DNA from: Bacteroidales bacterium
GTDB lineage: Bacteria; Bacteroidota; Bacteroidia; Bacteroidales; GCA-2748055
Assembly (NCBI GenBank): GCA_046485075.1
Contig: JAWOHR010000212.1
Location: 422 to 64,421, forward strand
DNA length: 64,000 bases
Direction: 5' to 3'
Part shown: in pieces, positions 13,877 through 39,128 of the stretch
How the letters are laid out: the number at the start of each line of letters is the position of its first letter
How positions within the stretch are numbered: position 1 is the first letter of the stretch
Position numbers and translations under genes: made by a program
Notes under the pieces: model-generated
The model's input: only the letters and a program-made list of their open reading frames with translations
Database searches by the model: none
Told to the model about the DNA's origin: nothing

Positions 13877-14353
13877 TCAGGAATCCTGTTTAAACTGGTA
13901 AAGGAAAACGACGACCCCTTTGAAGGCCGGCTTCCTTCCATCTTTAATCTCCATAACCACCTCCACTTCAACCTTGGCCGTTCCCCGCAGATTTACAATT
14001 GATTTCAATTTTGCTTTGATCCTGACTTCGCCATTCACCACCACGGGCTCACCAAATTTAAAGTTCTCAATTCCGTAATTTACAAGCATGGTGATGTTAT
14101 TTACCTGGATGATCTGATTCCACAGGTAAGGAAGCAACGATAGACTAAGATATCCATGGGAAATGGTATTGCCGTAGGGGCTCTCCTTTCTGGCCCTATC
14201 GCTGTCCACATGGATCCACTGATGGTCAAGTGTGGCATCGGCAAACTGATCTATCTGCTCCTGGGTGATCCTGTGGTACTCCGATACCCCCAGTTCTTTG
14301 CCTGCAAACCGCTCAAATTCCTCGTAACTGTTAATCATCAATTTTGACATCAT
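13877..14353 (-). CDS. MaoC-like (R)-specific enoyl hydratase/dehydratase (hotdog fold)
   Basis: MaoC pattern (DATLDHQWIHVD...PYGNTISHGYLSLSLL). Start set at the internal Met just after the stop of the upstream gene. Confidence 0.8.
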   Translation of the reverse strand: MMSKLMINSYEEFERFAGKELGVSEYHRITQEQIDQFADATLDHQWIHVDSDRARKESPYGNTISHGYLSLSLLPYLWNQIIQVNNITMLVNYGIENFKFGEPVVVNGEVRIKAKLKSIVNLRGTAKVEVEVVMEIKDGRKPAFKGVVVFLYQFKQDS

Positions 14354-14354
14354 C

Positions 14355-15506
14355 TTACGCTGCTTTATAATTGAATACAGGATTGGCATAGATGTGCAGG
14401 TAAATAATGCGCAGCTCCTCTCTGTCCATTCCCTTCAGGGTTGATATTTTTGCACCCATTGTCTCCATAAATTTCACTTTCTCACTTTCGGTGTAGTTTT
14501 GTATGTACCGGTTGCCTTTTTCAATGATGTCGGCTGCAATATAGTTGTTGGGCCATAATTTATATCCCTGATGGATCTGCCTGTCGATTTCCCTGGCAAT
14601 TTTTTCGATTACTTCATTGTCATGGTGGTGCTCCGATTTGAGTTTGAGAAGATGATCATTCAGCGGTGTGCCAAATGTGAAGTGGATCCTTCCTTTTTCG
14701 CCTGTAATTCCGGCAAGAATACTCATCAGATCCTCATTGGGGGATTTTACATATTTCTCCCTTCTGTCCATGTATAGCTCCCTGACTTTCTGTATATCAC
14801 AAGGTTCAACTTCATAGGAGATGCTGACCGGGACAATGTTCAGACCGGCCAGTGAATCGCAGGTTTGCTCGCTTCCCATTGCCAGCATTTTGATCAGACC
14901 GGTCTGGGTTCGATCATCCCCGTCCTTGGTTCTGCCATTTCGCTGGGCGATCCATATGGACTCTTTCTGCTCCTTTAGCACATAATTGATGTAGGCCGAG
15001 TTGATCATGGCATTTCGATACTGGGTAATCTTTGAACCTCCACGGTAGAAGGTAAACATCTTGTTCAGTTTTCCTAAATCCAGCAGCAGCTGCTCGGTCA
15101 TCAGGTTCTCGCTGAAGGTGATCTGGGATGTTTTATAACCTTTCATGTGCAGCAGGTACTGCATGATTGCGGCGTCAAGCACGATGTCACGGTGATTCGC
15201 CACGAAAAGATAGGGCTTTCCTGGATCAAGCCCCTCACTTCCCGATTGGGTCAGTCCTGCCGAGGTCTTTCCGACAATCGTTTTCACCGTATGATAGGAG
15301 AAGAATTCCTGGAACTGGTCAACACTTTCAATCCTTCGCAGATGATTGGTCAGCTCTTCCGAATCGGCACCTTCGAAAAGGTATTTCAGAACCCCTGCAA
15401 ATCCGGGATGGTTCAGGAGTCTTTCAATGGCCGGCTTTACCTCGTGATCGTAAAAGGGCCTGATCAAATCAAATTGTTCGGATAAATCCATATCCAAATA
15501 TGGCAA
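14355..15506 (-). CDS. PlsC-type glycerolipid/lysophospholipid acyltransferase
   Basis: HX4D acyltransferase motif (ANHRDIVLDA) in a 383-aa protein. Confidence 0.75.
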   Translation of the reverse strand: MPYLDMDLSEQFDLIRPFYDHEVKPAIERLLNHPGFAGVLKYLFEGADSEELTNHLRRIESVDQFQEFFSYHTVKTIVGKTSAGLTQSGSEGLDPGKPYLFVANHRDIVLDAAIMQYLLHMKGYKTSQITFSENLMTEQLLLDLGKLNKMFTFYRGGSKITQYRNAMINSAYINYVLKEQKESIWIAQRNGRTKDGDDRTQTGLIKMLAMGSEQTCDSLAGLNIVPVSISYEVEPCDIQKVRELYMDRREKYVKSPNEDLMSILAGITGEKGRIHFTFGTPLNDHLLKLKSEHHHDNEVIEKIAREIDRQIHQGYKLWPNNYIAADIIEKGNRYIQNYTESEKVKFMETMGAKISTLKGMDREELRIIYLHIYANPVFNYKAA

Positions 15507-15512
15507 TTTATC

Positions 15513-16799
15513 CTAAGTTTTCCGCCTGTCCATAAAAGTTACCGGTTTTCTGCTCAGGTTGGGGTTTTGCATCCGGGTTACCTCTTTTGGATTCATAAAC
15601 TGTATGGAAGGGGCCACCCGAAGCCTTGCCCTGAAGTGGTCCTTGATCCTTTTCTCAACGGAAGGGGTTGGAGTTCCACTTCCAATGATCACCAGGATAT
15701 CATCTGTATCGATGCTGTTGGTGGAAACGACTACGATGTAATTCTCAACCTCCTCGATTTCGTTCAGAATTTCATAGAACGCCGGCGGATAGAGGGTGGT
15801 CCCTTTGTATTTGATCATCTGGTTCTTCCTGCCTTCAATGGGCCCAACCCGAAGGGTACTCCTGCCACAACTGCATCTTTGAGTGAAATGGTGACAAATA
15901 TCTCCTGTTTTAAAGCGTACCAGGGGCATTCCTTCAACAGCCAGACTGGTGATGGTGACCTCGCCCAGTTCTCCCTGACCTACAGGATTGTTCTCCTGAT
16001 CAAGGAACTCCACCACAATCATTTCAGGGTTCAGATGCCCCCCTGCCCCGGCATGGCACTCGGTAAAGGCAGCCCCCATTTCCGTGGAGGCATAGGTGGA
16101 GTATAGTTTGATGTCCCAGTTTTTTATAATCCGCCGGCCCAGTTTATTGAGTCTGAAGTTGCTATCCCGGATGGGCTCGCCAATGCAAACGACACTCTTA
16201 ACCGAGGTGGCAGATAGGTCGATTTTTTGCTCCCTGGCGTAATCGATCAGTTTCAGGAGGAAAGAAGGAACCGTGACCAGAACAGTTGGGGATGTGCGTT
16301 GAATCGTGTCAAATTGCAGGAGTAAATTACCGGGTCCGACCCTGATGATTCCAGCACCCAGTTTCCGAAGGCCCAGAAAATAGGCCATGCCCGCCATGAA
16401 CCTGCGATCAAGGGTCAGCATCAGCTGGTAGATATCCCGGCTCGATCCATCGGCACAGATGAATGAAGCATACTCGTTATCGGCCAGTCGCTGCAGGTCC
16501 CTCTCTGTGGCTACGAAGGTGATTGGGCTGCCGGTGGTTCCCGATGTGGTCATGTAATCGATGATCTTTTCATGCTCCACGCAAAGAAAATCCATATTGC
16601 GCTGCTGAAGATGCTCTTTGGTGGTGACTGGCAATGAGGTCAGATCCTCAATAGAATGGATGGATTCTGCATTTAACCCGGCCAGGTGTTCACGATAGAA
16701 AGGGGAGTACTTCATCACGTATTCCATCTGTGATGAAAGAAGTTGAGATTGAACTTCCTGGATCTCTGAAATGGTTTTATAGGGTAGTTCCCTGTCCAT
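15513..16799 (-). CDS. adenylate-forming ligase of the phenylacetate-CoA ligase / F390 synthetase family (candidate aryl-acid activating enzyme)
   Basis: AMP-binding core motif (TTSGTTGSPITF), PaaK-like length and a C-terminal small domain. Confidence 0.8.
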   Translation of the reverse strand: MDRELPYKTISEIQEVQSQLLSSQMEYVMKYSPFYREHLAGLNAESIHSIEDLTSLPVTTKEHLQQRNMDFLCVEHEKIIDYMTTSGTTGSPITFVATERDLQRLADNEYASFICADGSSRDIYQLMLTLDRRFMAGMAYFLGLRKLGAGIIRVGPGNLLLQFDTIQRTSPTVLVTVPSFLLKLIDYAREQKIDLSATSVKSVVCIGEPIRDSNFRLNKLGRRIIKNWDIKLYSTYASTEMGAAFTECHAGAGGHLNPEMIVVEFLDQENNPVGQGELGEVTITSLAVEGMPLVRFKTGDICHHFTQRCSCGRSTLRVGPIEGRKNQMIKYKGTTLYPPAFYEILNEIEEVENYIVVVSTNSIDTDDILVIIGSGTPTPSVEKRIKDHFRARLRVAPSIQFMNPKEVTRMQNPNLSRKPVTFMDRRKT

Positions 16800-16811
16800 G
16801 ATGATCTGTTT

Positions 16812-18500
16812 TTATCTGATTCCTTTATCAATACTCTCCATTGCCTCCTTCACCTGCTTTCTGTCAACTTCCCTGGGAATCTCCCTGGATAATGATTGCT
16901 TATACATTTCAGAGGCACGCTGCAACTCACCATTGATGCGAAAGATCTCCCCGGCTATAAACCAGGGGTAATAGTAGAAGGGATTCAACCCGAGGTAAGC
17001 CTCTAATTCTGCATTGCTGACACTCCCTGCAACCCCCTGCTCAATATGGGCTTTAAGCCGCAGTGTTTCTCTGGTATATTCCCTGTATGACCTAAACTGC
17101 TCTGAATCAAGGAAAGGATCGGGTGCGATGCTCCGCTTTTCCAGCCAGATCTGGTCCGATACCCCGGTAGAATCTGCAAAAACACTGTTCAGATCGTAAC
17201 AAAGATAGGTTCCCAGCTGGTAGGGGGAGGTGGAGACCCACATCTTTAGTTCAGAGGGCTTGAATATGACCGAATGGTGGGCAATAAGCTGATTCACAGC
17301 TTTCTCATTCCCCATACCAATGGGTTTACCACCCATACCGTTCTGATCTCTCAGCAAAAGGGCAAAGGAGTTCTGGTCGTGTTTTTGGGTGGACTCCATC
17401 AACTCCAGGGTTCTTTCCCATCGGTACATAGAGGCTCCCTCAGCAATGTTTCTCAGGGTCAACTCTGAATTCCGGAAGGTTTCACTCTGAAAATGGTTTG
17501 TAAGTACCAGGTAATCTCCACCGGGATCGTAAAGTGCAATATTGCTGGGCGATTTTTCGATCACCACGGTCCTGTTGTCAGATGCAGAACTTACCAAAAA
17601 GGATTCAGAAACAAAGGTTTCTGAGTTCCCGGCAATCTCGTAAGCCTCCGAAATGTTCGATGCGTATTGAAGAATCTGCCGCGCAAGTATGGAAACGGGT
17701 GTTTTTGAGGACCCTGGAATGCCCGATTTTGCTGCGTTAAGTGTTACTACCAGCCCCTGGTCGTTCATTCCCGAAACCACTCCGATCATTCCTCCCCATG
17801 TAACAGAAGCAAATCTGTATCCTTTTTCCGGCTTGTAGAAGGCGATGATTTTTTCCCTGGCAAATTTTTCACCCATTGAAAAATCGAAGTTTCTTCCTAC
17901 CATAAGGTTGCCATCTGCCGACCGCTGGCCATTTACCTCAAGTGCCGTGCAGGCAACCAGGTTCATGTTTTGCAGTGCATGCCCCAGATCATGTGCAGCG
18001 TGGTAGCTGAGTATTCTCTGGTAAGCCGGACCAATGAAATTGAACGAATCGGAGGCATAAAGGGCAACACCATAGATTTCCCTTTGGTACTCAACCGGTA
18101 TATGACGGTCCAGGTTCCTGTTCATCCATACAACGACCTGTTTCAGGAAATTGAGGTAGATATCCGAAGGAACCATCTCCCTGAGTTTCTCCACGAAAAC
18201 CTCTTCCTGGTATCGGATCAGGTCCCTGGCCAGAATGCCGTTCTTTACCCCAAGCTGGAAATCTGATCCTTCGAGGTACATCTCCCAAAGCCCGTAGCTG
18301 TTCTGCTTCAACCAGCTCTCCTGGCATGTATATTGACGATCTCCCACCTCAATCCGGTCGGGTAGAGGCTCAGTTTCCCCTTCGCCTGTTGGGGGGTGTA
18401 CAGGCGTGATCAATTTGAACAATACCACGAGCAAAATAATCATCCATAAAAGGCCAATGGCCCACCTTGCCCATGTGTGTCCTGGTTTTCTTTTATTCAT
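16812..18500 (-). CDS. membrane-anchored C45-family (Ntn, acyl-CoA:6-APA acyltransferase-like) acyltransferase/hydrolase with a TPR-like tail
   Basis: N-terminal TM helix (WAIGLLWMIILLVVLF). Candidate autoproteolytic/nucleophile Cys in NLVACTAL, followed by GRNFDF. Helical-repeat C-terminus. Confidence 0.55.
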   Translation of the reverse strand: MNKRKPGHTWARWAIGLLWMIILLVVLFKLITPVHPPTGEGETEPLPDRIEVGDRQYTCQESWLKQNSYGLWEMYLEGSDFQLGVKNGILARDLIRYQEEVFVEKLREMVPSDIYLNFLKQVVVWMNRNLDRHIPVEYQREIYGVALYASDSFNFIGPAYQRILSYHAAHDLGHALQNMNLVACTALEVNGQRSADGNLMVGRNFDFSMGEKFAREKIIAFYKPEKGYRFASVTWGGMIGVVSGMNDQGLVVTLNAAKSGIPGSSKTPVSILARQILQYASNISEAYEIAGNSETFVSESFLVSSASDNRTVVIEKSPSNIALYDPGGDYLVLTNHFQSETFRNSELTLRNIAEGASMYRWERTLELMESTQKHDQNSFALLLRDQNGMGGKPIGMGNEKAVNQLIAHHSVIFKPSELKMWVSTSPYQLGTYLCYDLNSVFADSTGVSDQIWLEKRSIAPDPFLDSEQFRSYREYTRETLRLKAHIEQGVAGSVSNAELEAYLGLNPFYYYPWFIAGEIFRINGELQRASEMYKQSLSREIPREVDRKQVKEAMESIDKGIR

Positions 18501-20010
18501 CCCTGATCTCCTTTAACAGTTTTCCCAAATCCAGAAGTGGTTCACAGGTAAACAGAGCCGATAAGGTCACTCCCAGCACACCATGCAGTCCCACCCCGGA
18601 ACTTTGCCCCGTGAGGAAGAGGTTGGGTATCCTGGTGTTGGTTGATATATAGGAATAACGTGCATTCCTGCAGTCCTTCATGATTCCATAGACGGTTCCG
18701 TGCGGGGTACCGGTATAATCACGGAAAGTGAGAGGAGTGGCGGTATAGTAGGTCTCAATGGCATCCCTCAGACCTTTAAGGCGCGAATCTGCAAATTCTA
18801 TTAATAGTTCGGCCCTCTTGCGCTTAAAGGTGGTATAGTCTCTTCCTCTTTTTCCCACTGTGGTATTTTCCCACTGTTTAACCTCTTCATACTTCATGTA
18901 AGCAGAAATGGTCATGCTTTCCGCATACCCGGGATTGGATTGATCGGGTGTGGTGTATAGGATGCAGGCACCCGGCCAGGGTCTTTCGAAATAGGTTCCG
19001 GGATTCCAGGAATCACTCCCGGTTGCGATATTTACGTTTGAGTTGATGTTGAGTAACTTTCCCTTTTTTAAGACAATATAGAGGCAAAACGATCCAATGG
19101 TATTTTCAAGCTCTTGAATCCTTTGCACATATGCCTTTCGGAACACTCCCGGTTCAACCAGTTTAACGGTTAGTGCCGGGTGCAGGCTGGAGATGAAATG
19201 GTCCCCTTTAACCATCGATCCGTCCCGTAACTCAATAGCCGTTGCTCTCCTTTCGTTTGTAATAAATCTGACCACCTCGCTGTTTATCCTCACCTCTCCG
19301 CCGTTTTGGGCGATGACATGCTCCAGTGCAGTCGCAAGCCGGTCACTTCCTTTGCTGAATTTCCAGGCACTCTGAATATAATGGTAGTGGATAATGGCGT
19401 GGGTGATCAGGGGTGATTTTCCGGGCTCACCAGCATAAAAAGCGCTGTTCACACCCCACAGTGCGCGCAGTTCGTGATTGTCGGTAAGGCTGTCGATGAA
19501 TTCAAATGCATCGATCTGGGTGTAACGGGTATCTGCATCAAGGTGGTTCCTGAAATCCTGAAGGTTCAGCACATTGGTACTGTTCCAAATCTCCTCAATC
19601 TTTTCAAGGTATGCATGAATGGCCGCTCCCTCGGATGGGAAATAGGTGAGAAGACGTTCCCTGTGCGCCTCCATTCCGCCGGCAAGGAGGTACTCCCTGT
19701 CGGACAGGTAAAGTCGTTCATATTGATCCCGATCGAGTCGCTCCAGTCCGGTTTGATCCAGTATCCCCAGGTATTTGAATACCTGGTGAAGGATCTGCCC
19801 CTTCTCCATCGTTCCCACAAAGTGCATGGCTGAATTAAAGACAACTCCTTTTCGCTTGAAGGTTTGCAGGTTACCCCCGATCTGGTGATGTTTTTCAAGG
19901 ATCAGGACCCTGTAGCCATTGAGGGAAAGAAGCGCCCCGCACATCAATCCACCTATGCCGCTTCCAATGATAACCACATCGAATCCTCCGTTGTTTCTGC
20001 TTCTCTCCAT
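18493..20010 (-). CDS. FAD-dependent oxidoreductase, phytoene desaturase (CrtI)-like
   Basis: N-terminal dinucleotide fold (DVVIIGSGIGGLMCGALL...LEKHHQIGG) and CrtI-like length. Confidence 0.8.
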   Translation of the reverse strand: MERSRNNGGFDVVIIGSGIGGLMCGALLSLNGYRVLILEKHHQIGGNLQTFKRKGVVFNSAMHFVGTMEKGQILHQVFKYLGILDQTGLERLDRDQYERLYLSDREYLLAGGMEAHRERLLTYFPSEGAAIHAYLEKIEEIWNSTNVLNLQDFRNHLDADTRYTQIDAFEFIDSLTDNHELRALWGVNSAFYAGEPGKSPLITHAIIHYHYIQSAWKFSKGSDRLATALEHVIAQNGGEVRINSEVVRFITNERRATAIELRDGSMVKGDHFISSLHPALTVKLVEPGVFRKAYVQRIQELENTIGSFCLYIVLKKGKLLNINSNVNIATGSDSWNPGTYFERPWPGACILYTTPDQSNPGYAESMTISAYMKYEEVKQWENTTVGKRGRDYTTFKRKRAELLIEFADSRLKGLRDAIETYYTATPLTFRDYTGTPHGTVYGIMKDCRNARYSYISTNTRIPNLFLTGQSSGVGLHGVLGVTLSALFTCEPLLDLGKLLKEIRDE

Positions 20011-25038: not shown

Positions 25039-25384
25039 CCTGAAACTTTATAAATACTTTCTCATTTTTTATTAGCCGGGCAGTCACCTGCATTTGATCT
25101 CCCGATTTACTGAAAGATATGGTTGCATCGATCTCCGGTTCGCTTAACGGCATATGAACAGCCGTGAATTTAATCTGCTTTGCACCTGTGAGCATCAGGG
25201 GTACCCTCCATTCTCCCTCCAGGATATCTCTGATCATCATTAGCTGGCAAACACCAGGGGTGACCGGGAATCCGGGGAAATGTCCGCTATATACCAGGTG
25301 ATGTGAATTGATCAGCAGGGTGGCATGGATCCGATTCTGTTCTCTGCCGGTGACCCTGTAACTGTATAGACCATTGAACCCCAT
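25007..25384 (-). CDS. FabA/FabZ-like 3-hydroxyacyl-ACP dehydratase (hotdog)
   Basis: Catalytic-His motif context (HLVYSGHFPGFPVTPGV). Confidence 0.75.
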   Translation of the reverse strand: MGFNGLYSYRVTGREQNRIHATLLINSHHLVYSGHFPGFPVTPGVCQLMMIRDILEGEWRVPLMLTGAKQIKFTAVHMPLSEPEIDATISFSKSGDQMQVTARLIKNEKVFIKFQGEFREQKQNL

Positions 25385-25391
25385 TACACTA

Positions 25392-29093: not shown

Positions 29094-29094
29094 G

Positions 29095-30321: not shown

Positions 30322-30337
30322 CTAACTTACACGTGAA

Positions 30338-30577
30338 ATGCAAAGGGCAGAGATAATAGAGAAAGTAAATGAGTTTTTAATGGATGAGTTTGAGATCGAG
30401 GAGAGTGCCCTGGGTCCGGATGCTCATCTGATTGATGACCTGGGGATTGAAAGCCTTGATTTTGTGGATATTGTTGTAACCATCGAAAAGGAATTCGGGT
30501 TTAAAGTGAAAAGGGAAGAGATCACCAATGTTCGCACCCTGAATGATCTTTACGGATATATTGAGAAGCGGGTGTGA
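30338..30577 (+). CDS. acyl carrier protein
   Basis: 79 aa and acidic, with a phosphopantetheine-attachment context (DDLGIESLDFVDIV). Confidence 0.85.
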   Translation: MQRAEIIEKVNEFLMDEFEIEESALGPDAHLIDDLGIESLDFVDIVVTIEKEFGFKVKREEITNVRTLNDLYGYIEKRV

Positions 30578-30601
30578 CCACCCGTCCAATCTAATCGATG
30601 T

Positions 30602-31498: not shown

Positions 31499-31567
31499 TT
31501 AAATGATACGTTGCAGAAAGATTGAAAAAATGGTGCTAAATTCACTGCGAAAGATGAAAGTCAGGAT

Positions 31568-32641: not shown

Positions 32642-33066
32642 ATAAAAAGAAACTTTCAGATTTGGATATCCTGCAGTTCATTCCCCAGCGTGACCCAATG
32701 GTTATGGTTTCGGGACTTCAATGGGCCAGCGATCACGCAGTCACCACCTGGTTTCTGATTAAAGAGGGGAATATATTTCTGAAGGATGGACGATTGCGGG
32801 AAGAGGGTCTCATTGAAAATATTGCCCAGAGCGGTGCTGCCATGATTGGTTACCGTGCCATGGTTAACAAAGAGCCGATAAAGAATGGCTATATTGGGGG
32901 TATTAAAAATCTGGAGGTACACTCGCTGCCGGAAACGGGAGTCCGGCTGACCACATCGGTCACTGAAACCTATCATGTAATGGATACCAGCATTATTGTT
33001 GGAGAGGTTAGGGTCGATGATCAGCTGATAGCCAGGTGTGAAATGAAAGTATTTTTGCAACCATAA
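32623..33066 (+). CDS. hotdog-fold dehydratase (ApeI-like)
   Basis: 147 aa. The FIPQRDPMVMV N-terminal motif resembles aryl-polyene cluster dehydratases. Assignment rests on size, motif and context. Confidence 0.55.
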   Translation: MQAEVVNKKKLSDLDILQFIPQRDPMVMVSGLQWASDHAVTTWFLIKEGNIFLKDGRLREEGLIENIAQSGAAMIGYRAMVNKEPIKNGYIGGIKNLEVHSLPETGVRLTTSVTETYHVMDTSIIVGEVRVDDQLIARCEMKVFLQP

Positions 33067-33076
33067 AAAATTTCAT

Positions 33077-33679
33077 ATGAAAAAACTCACCTTATTCATT
33101 CTGATTGGAACCCTATGGTTTTCCTGCCAGGCAGCCGGGCCCTCCCAGGTCACCGATGAACTGGTTTGGTTTGGTATTGATTACACCCTGGTGAAATTTA
33201 TCGGTACATCGGACCAGTTCAGTGATCTCCCGAAAATTCAGAGTTACTATTTCCGGAGCTGGAATGAATTGATTCTGGCTGAAAAGGATAAGTACGACCT
33301 GAACAGTGCATTTTCCATGGCGACCATACACTATAATATGGAGAACACCATTTTACGAAGTGAGCAAAGGGTTATGGATGGAATTGTGCAGCATAACGAT
33401 TACACCATTGATGAAGATCAGGTAAAAAACGTGGTCAGTTTAAATTTGGATCCTTCCGTGAATCAGGTGGGCGCCATTTTTGTCATGGAGACCCTCAACA
33501 AAACTGAGGAAATCTCGACCATGTGGCTGGCTGTTTTTAATATTGCATCAGGCGAGATTCTTTACATGAGAAAGTACAGTGGCGCAGTGGGCGGCTTCGG
33601 ATTCCGTAACTATTATGCAAAGAGTTATTACAATGTAATTCAAAACCTGAGGGTGGTACCCAGAAACCCTGCAAAGTGA
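33077..33679 (+). CDS. hypothetical lipoprotein
   Basis: Signal peptide with a Cys (LIGTLWFSCQ). No recognisable family. Embedded in the operon with a 4-nt stop/start overlap to the next gene. Confidence 0.5.
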   Translation: MKKLTLFILIGTLWFSCQAAGPSQVTDELVWFGIDYTLVKFIGTSDQFSDLPKIQSYYFRSWNELILAEKDKYDLNSAFSMATIHYNMENTILRSEQRVMDGIVQHNDYTIDEDQVKNVVSLNLDPSVNQVGAIFVMETLNKTEEISTMWLAVFNIASGEILYMRKYSGAVGGFGFRNYYAKSYYNVIQNLRVVPRNPAK

Positions 33680-34107
33680 AGATCACAGAATTAACCGATA
33701 AAACTGAAACCACCGTGCGCTTCAGTGAGGTGGATGCCATGGGCATCGTCTGGCACGGAAATTTTGTTAAATATATGGAAGATGGTCGCGAATCGTTTGG
33801 ACGAACATACGGTCTGGGCTATTATGACCTTTATGAACAGGGCTTACTGGTCCCCCTTGTAAAGATGGATATCAGTTACAAATTACAGGTGAAGTACGGA
33901 GAACGCATTTTAATTGAAACCACCTGGGTGAACTGCGATGCCGCTAAAATCCTTTTCAGGTACAGGATCTGTCGTGCAACCGACAACGCACTATTGATGT
34001 CGGCATCCACAACACAGGTATTCCTCAATTTGAAGGGGGAACTGGAACTGACCAACCCGCAGTTTTTCCTGGAGTGGAAAAAGAGGAACAGAATTGAGAC
34101 CCGGTGA
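33676..34107 (+). CDS. 4HBT/YbgC-type acyl-CoA/ACP thioesterase
   Basis: VRFSEVDAMGIVWHGNFVKYMEDGR is typical of 4HBT hotdog thioesterases. Confidence 0.8.
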   Translation: MKITELTDKTETTVRFSEVDAMGIVWHGNFVKYMEDGRESFGRTYGLGYYDLYEQGLLVPLVKMDISYKLQVKYGERILIETTWVNCDAAKILFRYRICRATDNALLMSASTTQVFLNLKGELELTNPQFFLEWKKRNRIETR

Positions 34108-35255
34108 TATCTAAAATGATTCAAACCTACCTGGAAAATAGCAACATTATCTCTCCCCTGGGATGGAATACGCGTCAGAACCTCCAATCGGTGCTGTCGG
34201 GTAGGGAGGGTATACGTATCTGCAATGACCGGAGCCTTTCACCGGTAGATCTGCCCATAGCACGCCTTGATTGGGACGAACTGGAAAGACGCTTCCATGA
34301 GATGATAGCCCGGGATGCAAAGGAACAATTCACCCGGTTTGAGAAGATGGGGATTCTCTCCATAAAAGATACAATTACGGATTCTGAGGTGGACCCGGCC
34401 GACCCGGAAACCGCCTTGATTCTTGCTACCACAAAGGGAAATGTCGAATTATTGGATCACCCGGCCGGATTTGAAAAAGAGCGGCTGCATCTCTGGAAAT
34501 CTGCAGAGGTGATCGCACGCTTTTTTGGTATAAAAACCCGGCCTGTGGTTGTTTCCAATGCATGTGTTTCCGGAGTGTCGGCAATGCTGGTCGGCCGGCA
34601 AATGATCTCCTCGGGGCGTTGCAAACATGCCCTTGTTCTGGGTGCTGACACCGTCTCGAAGTTCATTTTATCCGGATTTCAATCCTTTAAGTCTTTGAGC
34701 AATGAGCCATGCAAACCCTTTGACCATCAGCGAAATGGTCTCACTCTTGGAGAGGGGGCAGCTTCAGTGGTGATCTCCGGTATGCATGGACAGGTGGAAT
34801 TGGTCTCGGGATCAACCAGTAACGATGCAAATCATATCTCCGGTCCATCTCGTAACGGAGATGGATTGTTGCTGGCTATTATGAACACGATCAAAGGGCA
34901 AGGTCTGCCCGGGATTATTTCGGCACATGGTACCGCAACCCTTTACAACGATGAGATGGAGTCCATTGCAATTACCCGGGCCGGACTGGCAGGGGTGGCT
35001 GTAAACAGTCTGAAGGGGTACTTCGGACATACACTGGGTGCTGCAGGAATCCTGGAGAGCATTGTCAACATTGAAGCGATGAAGCTGGGGCTTTTTCCCG
35101 CCACCAAAGGTTATTCCACTCTGGGAGTATCAGGGGAGATAAATGTTTCAAACCAGAGCGGGGTGATAGAAGCTGGCTCTATGCTTAAAATTGCATCAGG
35201 ATTTGGTGGCTGCAATGCCGCGGCCCTCTTTACATTGAGATCATGGAGATCGTAA
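34104..35255 (+). CDS. beta-ketoacyl synthase (Cys-His-His type)
   Basis: Cys (VSNACVSGVSAM) and His motifs (SAHGTATLYND, FGHTLGAAG). Confidence 0.8.
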   Translation: MISKMIQTYLENSNIISPLGWNTRQNLQSVLSGREGIRICNDRSLSPVDLPIARLDWDELERRFHEMIARDAKEQFTRFEKMGILSIKDTITDSEVDPADPETALILATTKGNVELLDHPAGFEKERLHLWKSAEVIARFFGIKTRPVVVSNACVSGVSAMLVGRQMISSGRCKHALVLGADTVSKFILSGFQSFKSLSNEPCKPFDHQRNGLTLGEGAASVVISGMHGQVELVSGSTSNDANHISGPSRNGDGLLLAIMNTIKGQGLPGIISAHGTATLYNDEMESIAITRAGLAGVAVNSLKGYFGHTLGAAGILESIVNIEAMKLGLFPATKGYSTLGVSGEINVSNQSGVIEAGSMLKIASGFGGCNAAALFTLRSWRS

Positions 35256-35806
35256 ACCACATCAGGATCATCAATGGAGAGGTCCGTGTAAACGACATAT
35301 CCCGGTTTAGTCATGCCGACAGAGAACTTAAATCATTTGGAAGGAGCCTGTATAAACATCTCGGAATCTCCTATGCCAAGTTCTATAAGATGTCGCCCCT
35401 GAGCCAACTGGGATTCCTGGCTTCGGAAATGATCCTGGCCGGGCAGAATCTCTCCAGAGTGGATCTTGAAAAAGTCTCCATTGTGATTGCAAACTCATCC
35501 TCCTCCATTCATACGGACAGGATTTACCAGGAAACAGTGGAATCCACCCCAAGCCCGGCTATATTTGTATACACACTACCTAACATTGTGATCGGTGAGA
35601 TATGCATCCGGAACGGTTTTAAAGGAGATGGGGTCTTTTTTATACAGGAAAGTTTTGATAAAGAGTTTATATTTGAACATGCTGAATCGCTGATTCATTC
35701 AGGTCGTTCAGCCCTTTGCCTTGCAGGCTGGCTGGAAGTGGATCTGGAGGGGGATTATCTTGCCGATCTCTCGCTGTTGAAAGGAGAATGGCAATTAAAT
35801 GTATGA
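35243..35806 (+). CDS. stand-alone ketosynthase N-terminal-half-like protein without a catalytic Cys
   Basis: 187 aa. The pattern PSPAIFVYTLPNIVIGEICIRNGFKG resembles the region before the KS active site, but no Cys follows it. Confidence 0.45.
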   Translation: MEIVNHIRIINGEVRVNDISRFSHADRELKSFGRSLYKHLGISYAKFYKMSPLSQLGFLASEMILAGQNLSRVDLEKVSIVIANSSSSIHTDRIYQETVESTPSPAIFVYTLPNIVIGEICIRNGFKGDGVFFIQESFDKEFIFEHAESLIHSGRSALCLAGWLEVDLEGDYLADLSLLKGEWQLNV

Positions 35807-35809
35807 ATT

Positions 35810-36064
35810 ATGGATGAATTGATTGAAAAACTGAAAGCAGAATTGATTGAACATCTCAACCTTGAAGATATGGAGCCCCGTGACATCGATGCTGAAGCAC
35901 CCCTGTTTGGAGACGGTTTGGGACTCGACTCCATCGATGCCCTGGAGATTATTGTTCTTTTGGAGAAAGAGTATGATATCAAAATCAGCGATCCGCGTGA
36001 GGGCAAGGATATCATGTACTCGGTGGGTACACTTGCCAGGTTTATTGAAGGTAACCGAAAATAG
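35810..36064 (+). CDS. acyl carrier protein
   Basis: 84 aa with a DSL-type attachment site (GLGLDSIDALEIIV). Confidence 0.85.
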   Translation: MDELIEKLKAELIEHLNLEDMEPRDIDAEAPLFGDGLGLDSIDALEIIVLLEKEYDIKISDPREGKDIMYSVGTLARFIEGNRK

Positions 36065-36067
36065 AGC

Positions 36068-37276
36068 ATGACCTCCCCGATGGATGATCATATCTGGATT
36101 ACGGGAATTGGCGTAGCCTGCTCCATAGGATTGAATGTGGAGGAGAGCCTCAATGCACTGATATCGGGGAGAAGAGGTATTGGCCCCATACGGCTTTTGG
36201 ATACAATTCATAAAGATCATTTCCGGGTGGGGGAGATTGCGCTTACCGATCATCAGATGATGGAGGTTCTGGGGATTCCTGTAATCCTGTATAAACGTTT
36301 TACCCGTACCTCTTTAATTGGTATGATGGCAGCAAAGGAAGCCCTCCTGGCCTCGGGCATTGATCTGGCCGATGGAGTATCCACGGCTCTGGTTTCTGCC
36401 ACAACCGTGGGAGGGATGGATAAAACCGAGCGGGAGTTTTCCAGGGGAAATGTGGCATCGGGTTTCGTGTCGACTCACCCCTGTGGCGATTCGACCGATA
36501 AAATTGCCGATTTCCTGGGATTAACGGGATACCGGACAACCCTGAGTACAGCCTGTTCGTCCAGTGCCAATGCCATTATTCATGCTGCACGACTGATAAA
36601 GCACCGAAGAGTGGATCGTGCCATTGTGGGGGGGGTTGATGCTCTTTCCAGGTTTACATTGAACGGGTTCAATTCACTGATGATCCTGGACCGGGAGGAG
36701 TGCCGGCCCTTTGATCGCAACCGGAAGGGTCTGAACCTGGGTGAGGGCTCAGGATACCTTGTCATGGAGCCGGAACGTCTCCTTTCACCCGGCGATAAAA
36801 GAAAGATTTGCAGACTTTCAGGATATGCCAACGCCAATGATGCACATCACCAGACTGCATCATCACCCGACGGACAGGGTGCATATGATGCCATGAGGGG
36901 TGCTTTGGCCAGCGGTGGACTTAATCCGGGTGAAATTGATTACATCAACGCCCATGGAACGGGGACAGAAAACAATGATGCATCCGAGGGTGCTGCTCTG
37001 GTGAGGGTATTTGGTGACCTAATGCCTCCCTTCAGTTCCACGAAAGCATTTACAGGACATACACTGGGAGCTGCAGCCGGAATAGAGGCAGTTTTTTCCA
37101 TCCTGGCCATTCAACAGGGAGTCCTTTTTCCCGGACTGGGTTTTGAGGAACCCATGGAAGCGCCCTCCATTTCCCCTGTTCCATTTTTGGAAGTGGGATT
37201 AGACATTCAGCATGTACTATCCAACTCTTTTGGTTTCGGGGGAAACAACTCCACACTGATTTTCTCAAAATCCTAG
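36068..37276 (+). CDS. beta-ketoacyl-ACP synthase (FabF-like, Cys-His-His)
   Basis: LSTACSSSANAI, NAHGTGTENND and TGHTLGAAAG motifs. Confidence 0.9.
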   Translation: MTSPMDDHIWITGIGVACSIGLNVEESLNALISGRRGIGPIRLLDTIHKDHFRVGEIALTDHQMMEVLGIPVILYKRFTRTSLIGMMAAKEALLASGIDLADGVSTALVSATTVGGMDKTEREFSRGNVASGFVSTHPCGDSTDKIADFLGLTGYRTTLSTACSSSANAIIHAARLIKHRRVDRAIVGGVDALSRFTLNGFNSLMILDREECRPFDRNRKGLNLGEGSGYLVMEPERLLSPGDKRKICRLSGYANANDAHHQTASSPDGQGAYDAMRGALASGGLNPGEIDYINAHGTGTENNDASEGAALVRVFGDLMPPFSSTKAFTGHTLGAAAGIEAVFSILAIQQGVLFPGLGFEEPMEAPSISPVPFLEVGLDIQHVLSNSFGFGGNNSTLIFSKS

Positions 37277-37279
37277 GGA

Positions 37280-38353
37280 ATGGCCATCTATATCCAATCG
37301 GCTGAAGCCATCTCACCCCAGGATACATTCCGCCCTGATTCTTTGAGCTTTCTTTCTCCCAAGTCAGAAGGGCTCAGGCAGCTGCCGGAAGAGGGTTACT
37401 ATACCTGTATTCATCCCGATTACAAGCAAATGATCAATCCGACATCCCTAAGGCGAATGTCACCCTTGGTCCGGATGGGTATGGCAGCTTCGAAGGTGTG
37501 CATGGAAGAGGCCGGTCTTGAGAAGCCTGATGCCATCCTTGTGGGTTCAGGGCTGGGTTGTGTAAGGGATACTGTCAAATTCCTGAACCAGGTAACCGAC
37601 AACCAGGAACTATTGCTTAATCCCACTGCCTTTATCCAGTCCACCCATAATACAGTATCCGGACAAATTGCCCTGATGCTGGGTTGCAGGGCATACAACC
37701 TTACTTTTTCGCAAAATACCATTTCGTTCGAGACCGCCCTGCTGGAAGGAATGATGTTGCTGGACGAGGGACAAGCCCGGAATATCCTCCTGGGAGGTAT
37801 CGATGAAGTGGTGGAGGAGAGCTATCGGTTGTTGGATAAAAACGGTTGTGTGAATGGACCCGTGGGAGAGGGATGTAACTTTTTTGTGATCTCCTCCGAA
37901 AGATCAGGAAAGAGTATGGCCAGGGTGGATGGATTGGAGATGCTTAACCGCTGCGAAAAACCGGAGGAACTTACCGGATACACACTCTCATTCCTGGCAT
38001 CCAAAGGGGTGGCGGCCGGAGAGATCGATCTGTTTGTTTCTGGCCGTAATGGCGATGATGGTTATGCACATATCTACAGCCAGCTGGAAAAACTCTTTCC
38101 TGCGGATAAAGTGATGGCATACAAGCATCTGGTTGGTGAATATCATACGGCATCAGCATTTGGTATGTGGTTATCAGCCCGGCTCATTCGTGAAAATGGG
38201 TTTCCGGATTCAGAACTGTTACATCCAAAGGAAACTGGTTCTGATACGGAGACAGGTTTGGCGGGAAGTCTTCCCATCCGGCGGGCGTTGCTGTTTAATC
38301 AGAACAAAGGTCGCGATTTCACCTGGATCCTGATTTCTCATCCAGATACCTGA
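37280..38353 (+). CDS. ketosynthase-like chain-length-factor-type subunit (catalytic Cys absent)
   Basis: Thiolase-fold-like protein. The position that aligns by eye with the KS Cys reads TFSQNTISFETAL. The gene starts 4 nt after the preceding KS. Confidence 0.7.
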   Translation: MAIYIQSAEAISPQDTFRPDSLSFLSPKSEGLRQLPEEGYYTCIHPDYKQMINPTSLRRMSPLVRMGMAASKVCMEEAGLEKPDAILVGSGLGCVRDTVKFLNQVTDNQELLLNPTAFIQSTHNTVSGQIALMLGCRAYNLTFSQNTISFETALLEGMMLLDEGQARNILLGGIDEVVEESYRLLDKNGCVNGPVGEGCNFFVISSERSGKSMARVDGLEMLNRCEKPEELTGYTLSFLASKGVAAGEIDLFVSGRNGDDGYAHIYSQLEKLFPADKVMAYKHLVGEYHTASAFGMWLSARLIRENGFPDSELLHPKETGSDTETGLAGSLPIRRALLFNQNKGRDFTWILISHPDT

Positions 38354-38366
38354 CAGATCCTCAGCC

Positions 38367-39128
38367 ATGAAAAGGTTTTATAGGGTCACAGCGATTTTTG
38401 CAGGCATATTTTTCCTGCTTTTCACACCCTTTATGGAACCTGTTCGTCTGCCACTTGTAATTGTGGTACTCTCATTATACGGATTTCTTCTTATTTCCGG
38501 AGCATCAAGGATTGAATCCCAGTTCTTTGTGCGCGCTTCATGCCGGGGAGATGCCGCAGATAATAAAGTAGCGATCACCTTTGACGATGGTCCATATGGG
38601 AAGCGTTCATTAGAAATTCTTGAGATATTAAGTAGACATGACTGCCTGGCCTCTTTCTTTCTCATCGGGCGCAAAGCAAAGGATGACCCTGAAATCGTGA
38701 AAATGATGTTAAAAGATGGTCATCTCATTGGGAATCATTCCTTCAGTCATTCAAATCTCTTTCCGCTTTACAGCCCTGCCCGGATCAAACGTGAGCTGGA
38801 TGAGACCAATCGTATTCTTGAAGCGGCCGGTTCAAAGCCGGTTCGTCTCTTTCGGCCACCATTCGGGGTTACCAACCCCAATGTTGCCAGGGGCGTAAGA
38901 ACCTCGGGAATGAAGGTGGCAGGATGGAGCATCCGGTCATTTGACACACGGGACCAGGCAGCCGATAAAGTTGTAAAGAGGATCCTGAAGAGGTTGGGGG
39001 GAGGGGATGTGGTACTCCTGCATGAGACCTCGAAACACATCCTGGAGATTCTTGAACAACTATTACCCGCCATTCGCCAGGCAGGTCTTACCTGTATAAC
39101 TTTGGATCAGATGTTTGAATCACAATGA
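38367..39128 (+). CDS. polysaccharide deacetylase (NodB homology domain) with an N-terminal membrane anchor
   Basis: NodB motifs (VAITFDDGP, IGNHSFSH, RPPFG). Confidence 0.85.
   Translation: MKRFYRVTAIFAGIFFLLFTPFMEPVRLPLVIVVLSLYGFLLISGASRIESQFFVRASCRGDAADNKVAITFDDGPYGKRSLEILEILSRHDCLASFFLIGRKAKDDPEIVKMMLKDGHLIGNHSFSHSNLFPLYSPARIKRELDETNRILEAAGSKPVRLFRPPFGVTNPNVARGVRTSGMKVAGWSIRSFDTRDQAADKVVKRILKRLGGGDVVLLHETSKHILEILEQLLPAIRQAGLTCITLDQMFESQ

Follow-up and report, generated by a model that had tools for sequence, protein, structure and literature searches.

A probable aryl polyene pigment cluster of the flexirubin (flx) type from an uncultured Bacteroidales bacterium, with a proposed pathway

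A locus of 25 genes from the genome of an uncultured Bacteroidales bacterium, located in a 64 kb window (the whole stretch of 64,000 nucleotides that was analysed), is very probably a flexirubin-type (flx) aryl polyene (APE) pigment cluster that would follow the pathway proposed below. Five of its proteins, FlxA, FlxB, FlxY, LolA2 and LolB2, pass the cut-offs of flexirubin-specific NCBIfam equivalogs, and LolA2 and LolB2 have been reported from flexirubin-type loci only (PMC11885536). A previous sequence-only reading had placed the locus in the APE/flexirubin family, which was correct, and the five equivalogs narrow it to the flx type. The cluster is an ordinary, well-preserved member of this already described family. 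Relationships to known proteins were established by homology, and the pathway steps are inferred from characterised enzymes of Chitinophaga pinensis and of Xenorhabdus, Escherichia coli and A. baumannii.

The open reading frame (ORF) list reproduced exactly the two divergent operons recognised previously, with 10 minus-strand genes (26670 down to 13877) and 15 plus-strand genes (26812 to 39128) separated by a 141 bp gap. Neighbouring genes overlap or are at most 70 nt apart. The features are:

13877–14389, minus: MaoC-like hotdog hydratase/dehydratase (Pfam MaoC_dehydratas, 7.9e-20)
14355–15506, minus: PlsC-like acyltransferase (Pfam Acyltransferase, 7e-6; motif NHRDIVLD), with a probable ATG start at 15491
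15513–16799, minus: FlxY, PaaK-like 4-coumarate-CoA ligase
16812–18500, minus: FlxW, C45 Ntn autoproteolytic acyltransferase (Pfam AAT, 5.6e-20)
18493–20010, minus: FlxV, CrtI/CrtD-like FAD oxidoreductase (Pfam Amino_oxidase, NAD_binding_8)
20011–23853, minus: FlxU, 1280 aa fusion of MMPL/RND exporter, LPLAT acyltransferase and SAM methyltransferase
23854–25038, minus: FlxT, GT2 glycosyltransferase ending in a DUF2062 membrane domain
25007–25384, minus: FlxS, small ApeI-like hotdog dehydratase subunit
25392–26072, minus: FlxR, LolB2-like lipoprotein
26017–26670, minus: FlxQ (LolA2), periplasmic carrier
26671–26811: divergent intergenic region with a conserved 32 nt core (26701–26732)
26812–28368, plus: FlxA, tyrosine ammonia-lyase (MIO enzyme)
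28365–29093, plus: FlxB, 3-ketoacyl-ACP reductase (ApeQ homologue)
29074–30321, plus: FlxC, FabB-like Cys-His-His ketosynthase (ApeR homologue; Pfam ketoacyl-synt N and C domains)
30338–30577, plus: FlxD, ApeF-like acyl carrier protein (Pfam PP-binding, 4e-12)
30602–31498, plus: FlxE, LpxL-type (lipid A-type) acyltransferase (Pfam Lip_A_acyltrans, 1.9e-19)
31568–32641, plus: FlxJ, SAM methyltransferase (ApeB homologue), putatively for aryl-ring methylation
32623–33066, plus: FlxF, small ApeP-like hotdog dehydratase subunit
33077–33679, plus: FlxG, 200 aa lipoprotein with no assigned function
33676–34107, plus: FlxH, 4HBT/YbgC-type thioesterase (ApeK homologue; Pfam 4HBT_2, 1.1e-15)
34104–35255, plus: FlxI, third Cys-His-His ketosynthase (ApeO paralogue; Pfam KS N and C domains)
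35243–35806, plus: FlxL, 187 aa single-thiolase-half protein without the catalytic Cys
35810–36064, plus: FlxM, acyl carrier protein (ApeE homologue; Pfam PP-binding, 4e-9)
36068–37276, plus: FlxN, Cys-His-His elongating ketosynthase (ApeO homologue)
37280–38353, plus: FlxO, Cys-less ketosynthase-like chain-length factor (Pfam Ketoacyl-synt_2, 1.9e-14)
38367–39128, plus: FlxP, membrane-anchored NodB-type polysaccharide deacetylase (Pfam Polysacc_deac_1, 2.8e-31)

As the flanks are housekeeping genes, NhaA at one end and PHO4 with a convergent CBM6 gene at the other, the boundaries of the cluster are real. Every one of the 25 ORFs is intact, with catalytic motifs kept, and has coherent family matches or conserved homologues (Pfam, NCBIfam and homologue searches). 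The Pfam and NCBIfam runs confirmed nearly all of the families that had been assigned by eye, namely the aromatic ammonia-lyase, PaaK-like ligase, two acyl carrier proteins (ACPs), FabG-type SDR, 4HBT thioesterase, O-methyltransferase, GT2, LolA-like, LolB-like, MMPL, C45 acyltransferase, CrtI-like flavoprotein, NodB deacetylase and MaoC proteins and three LPLAT-type acyltransferase domains. Six related MAG loci share the divergent architecture, with intact genes and 43–100% protein identity. The core of the intergenic region carries two back-to-back TAnnTTTG boxes (minus strand, 26700–26707; plus strand, 26725–26732), and its 29 specified positions are identical in L001, L002, L003, L005, L007 and L010, while the flanking DNA has diverged. 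This core is a predicted bidirectional promoter that probably drives both operons. As gene set, gene order and promoter core have been kept in relatives at this range of identities, purifying selection is indicated. A remnant that is decaying or silent and yields no product would be consistent with a cluster that includes no phosphopantetheinyl transferase and has no dar genes nearby, but the intact ORFs, the preserved motifs and the conservation among relatives make this very unlikely.

The first two steps are assigned to proteins with flexirubin-specific matches. FlxA scored 798.5 bits against FlxA_rubin_TAL (cut-off 700) and 6.8e-160 against Pfam Lyase_aromatic, and has the MIO motif ASG at residues 141–143. 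FlxY scored 632 bits against FlxY_rubin (cut-off 520), and the C. pinensis FlxY enzyme has already been characterised (PMC3992019). Tyrosine would be converted to 4-coumarate by FlxA, and 4-coumarate to 4-coumaroyl-CoA by FlxY, so that the predicted starter is tyrosine-derived coumaroyl-CoA and not 4-hydroxybenzoate. FlxJ is 43% identical to ApeB (3e-109), though at 493 bits it is under the 560 bit cut-off of FlxJ_fam_MTase, and it may methylate the aryl ring.

For chain building, alignment of the ketosynthases (KSs) bore out the three Cys-His-His enzymes (at 29074, 34104 and 36068) and the Cys-less, chain-length factor (CLF)-like KS recognised by eye. The latter is FlxO (37280), in which Thr replaces Cys and the His pair is absent. 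FlxN is 41% identical to ApeO (8e-59, reciprocal best hit) and has FabF, 6qsp_A and 7f28_B as PDB matches. FlxI is 32% identical to ApeO (2e-34), and its best PDB match is Xenorhabdus doucetiae ApeO (6qsp_A, 9e-30). FlxC is 36% identical to ApeR (7e-74, reciprocal best hit) and is under both the FabB and FabF equivalog cut-offs. FlxO shares 27% identity with ApeC (2e-6, reciprocal best hit), and its only PDB sequence match was the ishigamide CLF (6kxd_B, 7e-5). The half-KS noted previously is FlxL, for which sequence-level evidence is weak; its AlphaFold model (pLDDT 87.3) matched FabF N-terminal halves in Foldseek (E 2e-6) and the ApeC chains 7f28_C (A. baumannii, 198 aa; TMt 0.62) and 6qsp_B (TMt 0.50), so the modelled fold is that of an ApeC-type half-size CLF. 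Of the ACPs, FlxM is 49% identical to ApeE (2e-23) and has the serine motif DSI, and FlxD is 38% identical to ApeF (9e-15). FlxB scored 382 bits against FlxB_rubin_SDR (cut-off 340) and is 44% identical to ApeQ (2e-67). We propose that FlxC helps in early elongation rounds, that FlxN:FlxO and FlxI:FlxL, adjacent in the cluster, act as KS:CLF pairs, and that FlxB reduces each beta-keto group.

These KS and ACP genes are members of the FabF/FabB/AcpP superfamilies, and FlxB also clears the cut-off of one generic FabG equivalog (288 bits versus 273), as might be expected of a locus that encodes no pigment pathway but the type II fatty acid synthase used for housekeeping, along with lipid A or phospholipid acyltransferases. 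However, the flexirubin-specific models are the best matches for FlxB, FlxA, FlxY, LolA2 and LolB2, the KSs and ACPs miss the equivalog cut-offs for housekeeping FabF, FabB and AcpP, the KSs by a wide margin (e.g. 378 versus 630), and FabI, FabD and FabH are absent. The locus also encodes a tyrosine ammonia-lyase, a coumarate ligase and two CLFs, one Cys-less and one half-size, and has proteins whose reciprocal best hits are Ape proteins. A housekeeping role is effectively refuted.

Of the three or four hotdog dehydratases proposed previously, two small ones, weakly detectable by sequence (weak FabA/FabZ matches for FlxS and weak FabZ matches for FlxF), stand, and the protein at 33077 is a lipoprotein. 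FlxS has the His motif GHFPGFPVTPGV but not the Glu, and in hhalign it matched ApeI (probability 82%, E 1e-5) but not ApeP. Conversely, FlxF has the Glu motif LIENIAQSG but not the HFP His motif, and matched ApeP (probability 77%, E 2e-5) but not ApeI. Motifs, adjacency and homology suggest that FlxF and FlxS form a heterodimer with one shared active site, His from FlxS and Glu from FlxF, as ApeP and ApeI would, and that dehydration by this heterodimer yields the conjugated polyene. FlxG was rejected as a hotdog dehydratase, as it has a signal peptide with Cys, and its model (pLDDT 89) has no more than weak fold matches, to the envelope lipoproteins PelC, GNA1162 and LpoB (TM 0.3–0.45); 87 homologues were found, but no family in Pfam or NCBIfam.

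The MMPL exporter, one of the LPLAT domains and a second methyltransferase domain, not recognised alongside the confirmed O-methyltransferase, are all parts of FlxU, so the cluster contains two methyltransferase domains. In FlxU, the MMPL/RND part (approximately residues 1–850; Pfam MMPL, 2.9e-23) matches ApeM (5e-21), the LPLAT part (about 890–1030; Acyltransferase, 5.8e-14; HX4D motif NHQSQLD) matches ApeD (4e-13) and the methyltransferase (about 1100–1220) matches Methyltransf_25 (9e-11). FlxQ scored 182.6 bits against LolA2_flexi (cut-off 125) and 4.7e-12 against Pfam LolA, and FlxR, which has a signal peptide with Cys, scored 67.4 bits against LolB2_flexi (cut-off 60). Export to the outer membrane would involve the FlxU MMPL domain, LolA2 and LolB2. 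FlxT (Pfam Glycos_transf_2, 1.6e-25; DUF2062, 4e-15) and FlxE correspond to the two halves of E. coli ApeJ, FlxT to the N-terminal GT2 half (32% identity, 2e-36) and FlxE to the C-terminal half (residues 250–550; 27% identity, 3e-26). FlxH is 28% identical to ApeK (7e-17). FlxP has the metal motifs TFDD and HSFSH as well as a hydrophobic N-terminal segment, FlxW scored 215 bits against C45_proenzyme (cut-off 85), and the crtI family match of FlxV is under its cut-off. The polyenoyl chain would be transferred to a lipid anchor, and the candidates for attachment are FlxH, FlxW, FlxE, the FlxU acyltransferase domain, the PlsC-like acyltransferase, FlxT and FlxP. We can only guess at the roles of FlxV, FlxW, FlxP, FlxG, the second methyltransferase domain and the PlsC-like acyltransferase.

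By analogy with C. pinensis, the anchor would most likely be a dialkylresorcinol, with dar genes predicted elsewhere in the genome. No darA or darB was found in the 64 kb window, and in the six related MAG loci L001, L003, L005, L007, L009 and L010 the 10 kb on each side of flxA contain no dar genes, all genes mapped in that range being flx genes. Alternatively, the same chromophore pathway could end in an APE-lipid-like glycolipid, in which an amino sugar, joined to a glycerophospholipid by FlxT and FlxE and deacetylated by FlxP, carries the aryl polyene as an ester, with the FlxU acyltransferase domain and the PlsC-like protein acylating the lipid and export via MMPL and LolA2/LolB2. The final lipid product had been described as unresolved, which is fair for flexirubin-type clusters, but an APE-lipid structure has been reported for Xenorhabdus, where ApeD and ApeJ are the proposed builders of a GalNAc-phosphate-glycerol lipid carrying the APE (10.1101/2020.12.19.423268). 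The matches of FlxT and FlxE to the two ApeJ halves and of FlxU to ApeD, the lack of dar genes in the window, the extra acyltransferase conserved in the minus-strand operon and a NodB deacetylase compatible with an amino-sugar intermediate are consistent with such a product. However, ApeJ-, ApeD- and NodB-like genes are also found in C. pinensis and Flavobacterium johnsoniae, both of them proven to produce flexirubins, so their presence cannot separate the two products, and as the C. pinensis dar genes are at a distant locus, their absence from 64 kb says little. We found no report of an APE-lipid from Bacteroidota in the literature consulted, and consider the glycolipid unlikely, though a good deal less so than a remnant.

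Comparison of gene order and content with the C. pinensis and F. johnsoniae flx and E. coli ape clusters supported flx membership. The cluster matches C. pinensis flxA–flxY almost gene for gene, and shares with the C. pinensis table the exporter-acyltransferase-methyltransferase fusion (Cpin_1873), the C45 protein, a retinol-reductase-like protein and the deacetylase. Thus, the C45 acyltransferase (counterparts by annotation and position, Cpin_1875 and Fjoh_1076), the CrtI-like oxidoreductase and the NodB deacetylase (Cpin_1868 and Fjoh_1086), regarded previously as extras, are FlxW, FlxV and FlxP of published clusters and, like the exporter fusion, standard flx members, although what FlxW, FlxV and FlxP do is, as noted previously, unproven. 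The ape cluster of E. coli CFT073 contains homologues of 15 of the proteins or domains, 13 by BLASTP, of which 12 are strong and reciprocal, and two (the dehydratases) by profile. The pairs are FlxB=ApeQ, FlxC=ApeR, FlxN=ApeO, FlxO=ApeC, FlxM=ApeE, FlxD=ApeF, FlxJ=ApeB, FlxH=ApeK, FlxT=ApeJ (GT2 half), FlxQ=ApeL (marginal, 2e-4 by BLASTP; 60% by profile), FlxS=ApeI, FlxF=ApeP and FlxU=ApeM and ApeD. The Ape letters assigned previously agree with Table 1 of PMC8253772 and, except for ApeH and ApeN, with these matches. FlxY had no BLASTP match to ApeH and a profile match of just 8% probability, which points to analogy, not homology, and no similarity between LolB2 and ApeN was detectable.

The cluster departs from the models in minor ways only. 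Its Q–Y block has the opposite orientation, and both a halogenase and a phosphopantetheinyl transferase are missing; as there is no halogenase in the cluster, the chromophore is predicted to be methylated, not chlorinated. The MaoC gene adjoins the PlsC-like acyltransferase gene only in the close relative L012. It was not found after this gene in L014, L015, L019 and L020, and in L016 a GH2 gene lies between the two and MaoC is nearer NhaA, so MaoC probably lies next to the cluster without belonging to it. The PlsC-like acyltransferase, absent from the published flxA–Y list, directly follows the FlxY-type ligase in L012, L013, L014, L015, L016, L019 and L020, and is the last conserved gene of the minus-strand operon in the source lineage.

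The divergent layout described in the sequence-only reading was reproduced exactly by the ORF list, with ten minus-strand genes running from 26670 down to 13877 and fifteen plus-strand genes running from 26812 to 39128. The 141 bp from which the two operons diverge was likewise confirmed, as 26671-26811. Adjacent genes in the cluster either overlap or have no more than approximately 70 nt between them. The features discussed here are:

12493-13971, NhaA ORF as listed
13877-26670, minus strand, ten-gene operon
14355-15506, minus strand, PlsC-like acyltransferase gene
20011-23853, minus strand, flxU (1280 aa exporter, acyltransferase and methyltransferase fusion)
26671-26811, divergent intergenic region
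26701-26732, 32 nt conserved core, a putative promoter or regulator site
26812-39128, plus strand, fifteen-gene operon
33077-33679, plus strand, flxG
43522-46799, row of four consecutive genes beginning with a ComA-like gene
47707-55585, Bat-type aerotolerance operon
56344-57498, homocysteine-biosynthesis sulfur-incorporation enzyme gene

Upstream, the cluster is flanked by genes for ArgRS, FolD, Ffh and NhaA, and downstream by a convergent gene for a CBM6 protein followed by genes for PHO4, a TPR protein, ComA, shikimate dehydrogenase, the Bat aerotolerance operon and the homocysteine-biosynthesis enzyme. As these flanks consist of unrelated housekeeping genes and the GC content does not shift across the cluster region, we conclude that the cluster and its boundaries are real. 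At one edge, the 492 aa NhaA ORF, which was called from a TTG start, shares 95 nt with the 3' end of the MaoC gene. As the NhaA Pfam domain starts at residue 71 and the orthologue in the related locus L016 is only 432 aa, the true start probably lies approximately 180 nt further downstream, in which case the two genes would not overlap.

When the 25 proteins were scanned with Pfam and NCBIfam models, nearly all of the families that had been assigned by eye were recovered. Five of the proteins passed the curated cut-offs of NCBIfam flexirubin equivalogs:

Cluster proteins passing NCBIfam flexirubin equivalog cut-offs (score, cut-off)
FlxA, tyrosine ammonia-lyase: FlxA_rubin_TAL, 798.5 bits, 700
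FlxB, SDR ketoreductase: FlxB_rubin_SDR, 382 bits, 340
FlxY, 4-coumarate-CoA ligase: FlxY_rubin, 632 bits, 520
LolA2, periplasmic carrier: LolA2_flexi, 182.6 bits, 125
LolB2, lipoprotein: LolB2_flexi, 67.4 bits, 60

FlxA includes the MIO motif ASG, and the LolA2/LolB2 pair is reported to be specific to flexirubin-type loci (PMC11885536). The ring methyltransferase FlxJ scored 493 bits with FlxJ_fam_MTase, which is below the cut-off of 560, and is 43% identical to ApeB over its full length. The ketosynthases (KSs) and acyl carrier proteins (ACPs) scored well under the NCBIfam cut-offs for the housekeeping proteins FabF, FabB and AcpP. The cluster is a member of a known and well-modelled family, and the sequence-only reading was accurate and well interpreted. 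Current NCBI models would annotate the cluster correctly, and standard genome-mining tools would call it 'arylpolyene'.

Gene-by-gene lists are available for flxA-flxY of Chitinophaga pinensis DSM 2588 (Cpin_1853-1877) and for the Flavobacterium johnsoniae cluster (Schöner et al. 2014, PMC3992019). Comparison with C. pinensis relied on the published annotation and gene order (PMC3992019, Tables S4 and S5) and on HMMs derived from such proteins, rather than on sequence alignment. At that level, the gene set agrees with the published lists, and 23 of the 25 C. pinensis gene types (A-J, L-W and Y) are present in the window. The order on the plus strand is A, B, C, D, E, J, F, G, H, I, L, M, N, O, P and that on the minus strand is Q (LolA2), R (LolB2), S, T, U, V, W, Y, and within each block it is largely that of C. 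pinensis. Besides the proteins recognized by the equivalog models, the shared set includes the type II KS, chain-length factor (CLF), ACP, dehydratase, thioesterase, exporter-acyltransferase, GT2, C45, reductase and deacetylase genes. The C45, CrtI-like and NodB genes, which had been regarded as extras, are in fact the canonical members flxW, flxV ('retinol reductase') and flxP, and have homologues in F. johnsoniae. Similarly, FlxU of C. pinensis likewise joins acyltransferase and methyltransferase domains to an exporter (PMC3992019), so the 1280 aa triple fusion is not new. The differences from C. pinensis are the absence of flxK (halogenase) and flxX (holo-ACP synthase), the relocation of flxJ to between flxE and flxF, and the gene or genes that follow flxY, namely that for the PlsC-like acyltransferase and perhaps that for MaoC. 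The Q-Y block is divergent from flxA here, whereas the C. pinensis table lists A-P then Q-Y consecutively and does not give strands.

The cluster of F. johnsoniae UW101 (Fjoh_1075-1110; McBride 2009, Schöner 2014) has in common with the cluster examined here the ligase, C45, retinol-reductase-like, exporter-acyltransferase, GT2, dehydratase, LolB2/LolA2, deacetylase, KS/CLF/ACP, thioesterase, LpxL-type acyltransferase and ammonia-lyase genes. However, homologues of FlxJ and FlxG, both present here, are absent from it, and it includes darA/darB, ABC transporter and halogenase genes, none of which are present here, within a single 37 kb cluster. The dialkylresorcinol genes darA/darB are required for the KOH-shifting aryl polyene-dialkylresorcinol ester by which a flexirubin is chemically defined. 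Neither darA nor darB was found among the scanned ORFs of at least 150 aa in the 64 kb window, and no other pigment genes were found in the remainder of the window, which is occupied by housekeeping genes, the Bat operon and the like. In C. pinensis, the dar genes are at a distant locus (PMC3992019), and in both genomes they are not adjacent to the flx genes. Thus, their absence from this window does not exclude membership of the flexirubin family.

The window proteins were compared with those of the Escherichia coli CFT073 ape cluster (NC_004431.1, 1143500-1163500), the annotation of which agrees with Table 1 of PMC8253772, using BLASTP and hhalign profile comparison. The correspondence with Ape proteins proposed in the sequence-only reading mostly held, the exceptions being ApeH and ApeN. 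Nine pairs were reciprocal best matches:

Reciprocal best BLASTP matches to CFT073 Ape proteins (identity, E value)
FlxB = ApeQ: 44%, 2e-67
FlxC = ApeR: 36%, 7e-74
FlxN = ApeO: 41%, 8e-59
FlxO = ApeC: 27%, 2e-6
FlxM = ApeE: 49%, 2e-23
FlxD = ApeF: 38%, 9e-15
FlxJ = ApeB: 43%, 3e-109
FlxH = ApeK: 28%, 7e-17
FlxQ = ApeL: weak and marginal, 2e-4

The two-domain ApeJ is split here, its GT2 half matching FlxT (2e-36) and its LpxL-type acyltransferase half matching FlxE (3e-26). Conversely, ApeM (5e-21) and ApeD (4e-13) are fused, together with an additional methyltransferase, in FlxU. In the hhalign comparison, FlxF matched ApeP (77%, E 2e-5) and FlxS matched ApeI (82%, E 1e-5), with no cross-matches. 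Hence, homologues of ApeB, C, D, E, F, I, J, K, L, M, O, P, Q and R of the ape clusters (E. coli CFT073, Xenorhabdus doucetiae and Acinetobacter baumannii) are present, and the ape core of Grammbitter et al. 2020 (KS, CLF, ACPs, dehydratases, ketoreductase and transporter) is complete. Both systems combine a highly reducing type II PKS with a half-size CLF, with a dehydratase that is a heterodimer (a predicted one here) and with export via MMPL and LolA-like proteins. The starter differs: here it derives from tyrosine, via a tyrosine ammonia-lyase plus a PaaK-like CoA ligase, whereas ape uses 4-hydroxybenzoate via the acyl-ACP synthetase ApeH. The ligase had been equated with ApeH, but FlxY has no BLASTP match to ApeH and an hhalign probability of just 8%, and the equation of the LolB-like protein with ApeN failed in the same comparison, which found no meaningful similarity between LolB2 and ApeN. 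Neither BLASTP nor hhalign found a match among the window proteins to ApeG (COG4648 membrane protein), the ApeA lipoprotein or ApeN (DUF3261), and FlxG, considered as a counterpart of ApeA, ApeG or ApeN, had no meaningful profile similarity to any of them. At most, LolB2 and FlxG may be analogous in function to these types of protein. The cluster exceeds the ape complement by FlxI (a third KS), a further CLF-like protein and the C45, CrtI-like, NodB and PlsC-like acyltransferase proteins.

Alignment of the five KS-like proteins located the Cys-His-His triad in those starting at 29074 (FlxC), 34104 (FlxI) and 36068 (FlxN), the three ketosynthases of this kind that had been counted by eye. The protein starting at 37280 (FlxO) has Thr at the Cys position and no His pair, consistent with its earlier description as a Cys-less, CLF-like KS, and the half-KS, FlxL (start 35243), is 187 aa and does correspond to no more than a KS N-terminal half. 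Sequence-only searches with FlxL, FlxF and FlxS gave results at or under threshold, and these proteins were resolved by profile comparison and structure prediction. FlxL has approximately 2,700 standalone relatives, each of approximately 185 aa. Its AlphaFold model (pLDDT 87) matches the N-terminal halves of FabF proteins (E 2e-6), and the best size-normalized structural match was the 198 aa A. baumannii ApeC (PDB 7F28 chain C; TMt 0.62), a CLF built from a single thiolase fold (Lee et al.). The model thus identifies FlxL as a predicted ApeC-type half-size CLF. For FlxI, the top PDB match was X. doucetiae ApeO; the Ape structures available are 6QSP and 7F28. The sole sequence-level PDB match for FlxO was the ishigamide CLF Iga12 (E 7e-5), from the ishigamide KS/CLF entry 6KXD. 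The highly reducing type II PKS for ishigamide (Iga11/Iga12; PDB 6KXD-F) is also a polyene-forming KS:CLF system. However, its amide-polyene pathway is actinobacterial and has neither an aryl starter nor genes for lipid export, and the similarity of FlxO to Iga12 is remote. From gene adjacency, we infer two KS:CLF pairs, FlxI:FlxL and FlxN:FlxO, and FlxC would be an ApeR-like accessory KS.

FabZ-type active sites are made up of a His and a Glu contributed by opposite subunits. FlxS has the FabZ-type His motif GHFPGFPVTPGV with Met in place of the catalytic Glu, while FlxF includes the Glu motif LIENIAQSG and is without the His motif. As the motifs are complementary, FlxF and FlxS are predicted to form a heterodimer with one active site, which would parallel the heterocomplexes reported among Ape enzymes (PMC8253772). 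FlxG was also considered as a hotdog protein, which was rejected. Its fold is confidently predicted (pLDDT 89) but bears only a weak resemblance to the envelope lipoproteins PelC, GNA1162, LpoB and the TolB N-domain, so FlxG is given no function. A signal peptide is present in FlxG together with a lipobox-like Cys; it was assigned to no family, and has only 87 detectable homologues, almost all of them in this Bacteroidales lineage.

A genome scan with FlxA returned ten relatives, all in MAGs of uncultured Bacteroidota/Bacteroidales, and the divergent architecture is retained in six of the ten (43-100% protein identity). The PlsC-like acyltransferase, which has an atypical motif (NHRDIVLD), is not in the published flxA-Y list. 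Its family is large, with 6,845 matches at E<=1e-10 among the 8,000 candidates scored. A metagenome scan with this acyltransferase returned just two short contigs, and its genomic context was taken from five homologue loci. In seven other contexts, loci L014, L015, L016, L019 and L020 among them, its gene is directly after that for the FlxY-type ligase and downstream of the CrtI-like and C45 genes. Five of the seven share just 48-67% identity. We conclude that the PlsC-like acyltransferase gene is the conserved terminal gene of the minus-strand operon in this lineage. The MaoC gene adjoins it only in the closest relative; a GH2 gene lies between them in L016, and MaoC is absent elsewhere. As this adjacency is patchy, it is doubtful that MaoC belongs to the cluster.

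The same loci differ in other details. Genes for a 4Fe-4S ferredoxin-like protein and a PAF-acetylhydrolase-like alpha/beta hydrolase are found between the C45 and ligase genes in L014 (7473-8711), L019 (2576-4698) and L020 (2549-4658), and L015 includes two copies of the CrtI-like gene. The acyltransferase-methyltransferase part of FlxU is encoded by a gene separate from the exporter gene in L014, and apparently also in L015, where the gene is cut by the end of the locus.

The 141 bp intergenic region includes a 32 nt core, AAAGGTAGTAAAAGAAAATATTAGTAGATTTG, in which the 29 specified positions are identical across six related MAG loci, although the intergenic DNA around it has diverged. Within the core, two TAnnTTTG boxes lie back to back, one on each strand and oriented toward its operon. 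We take TAnnTTTG to be the Bacteroidota-type -7 box consensus. The core can also be read as an inverted repeat, CAAAnnTA-N17-TAnnTTTG. TAnnTTTG is not enriched across the window (44 found, 36 expected), so the case for a promoter comes from the position of the boxes and their conservation across loci. A scan for sigma-70 promoters and terminators gave no useful information in this Bacteroidota genome. The core probably serves as a bidirectional promoter, as a regulator site, or as both.

By homology to characterized enzymes, FlxA and FlxY would convert tyrosine to 4-coumaroyl-CoA. The polyene would then be built by a type II system consisting of FlxC, FlxN:FlxO, FlxI:FlxL, the ACPs FlxD and FlxM, the FlxB ketoreductase and the FlxF:FlxS dehydratase, with FlxJ methylating the ring. 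As there is no halogenase, the product is predicted to be unchlorinated. Candidates for transfer of the chain to its anchor are FlxH, FlxW, FlxE, FlxT, FlxP, the acyltransferase domain of FlxU and the PlsC-like acyltransferase, and export to the outer membrane would involve the MMPL domain of FlxU and LolA2/LolB2. By analogy with C. pinensis, the default anchor would be a dialkylresorcinol, the product of dar genes located elsewhere in the genome. An outer-membrane aryl polyene glycolipid, instead of or besides the dialkylresorcinol ester, seems an unlikely product in this lineage, though four features would suit it: the NodB deacetylase, FlxT and FlxE as the equivalent of ApeJ, the fusion of an ApeD-like domain to the exporter, and the additional PlsC-like acyltransferase conserved in the lineage. 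It would resemble the amino-sugar phospholipid of the Xenorhabdus APE lipid, the structure of which has been reported (10.1101/2020.12.19.423268), and would be built on a de-N-acetylated amino sugar. However, ApeJ- and ApeD-type genes are also found in proven flexirubin producers, so they do not discriminate between the ester and the glycolipid. If a glycolipid were the product, 'flexirubin clusters' would generally encode a larger, hidden lipid. A search of the literature turned up no more recent enzymology for the late steps of the flexirubin pathway.

The additions to what was already modelled are small and of modest value. Among uncultured Bacteroidales/Marinilabiliales-like bacteria, flexirubin-type clusters that share the conserved divergent layout and putative promoter core are widespread. 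The Flx-Ape correspondence has been tested at the sequence level, including FlxT with FlxE, FlxU, FlxF/FlxS and the two KS:CLF pairs, and the conserved extra acyltransferase encoded after FlxY is a candidate enzyme for attachment of the pigment to its lipid.

Three of the features downstream of the cluster deserve mention. The Bat-type operon, which encodes a MoxR AAA ATPase, a DUF58 protein, BatA and VWA proteins and BatD, is typical of Bacteroidota. The four consecutive genes at 43522-46799 encode a ComA-like phosphosulfolactate synthase, a VCA0040-like membrane protein, a shikimate-dehydrogenase-like protein and an acyl-ACP thioesterase, and could represent a small sulfonate- or lipid-related operon. 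The homocysteine-biosynthesis enzyme was identified by Pfam HcyBio (1e-143). The pathway is known chiefly from anaerobes and methanogens, and its presence would hint that the host lives anaerobically.
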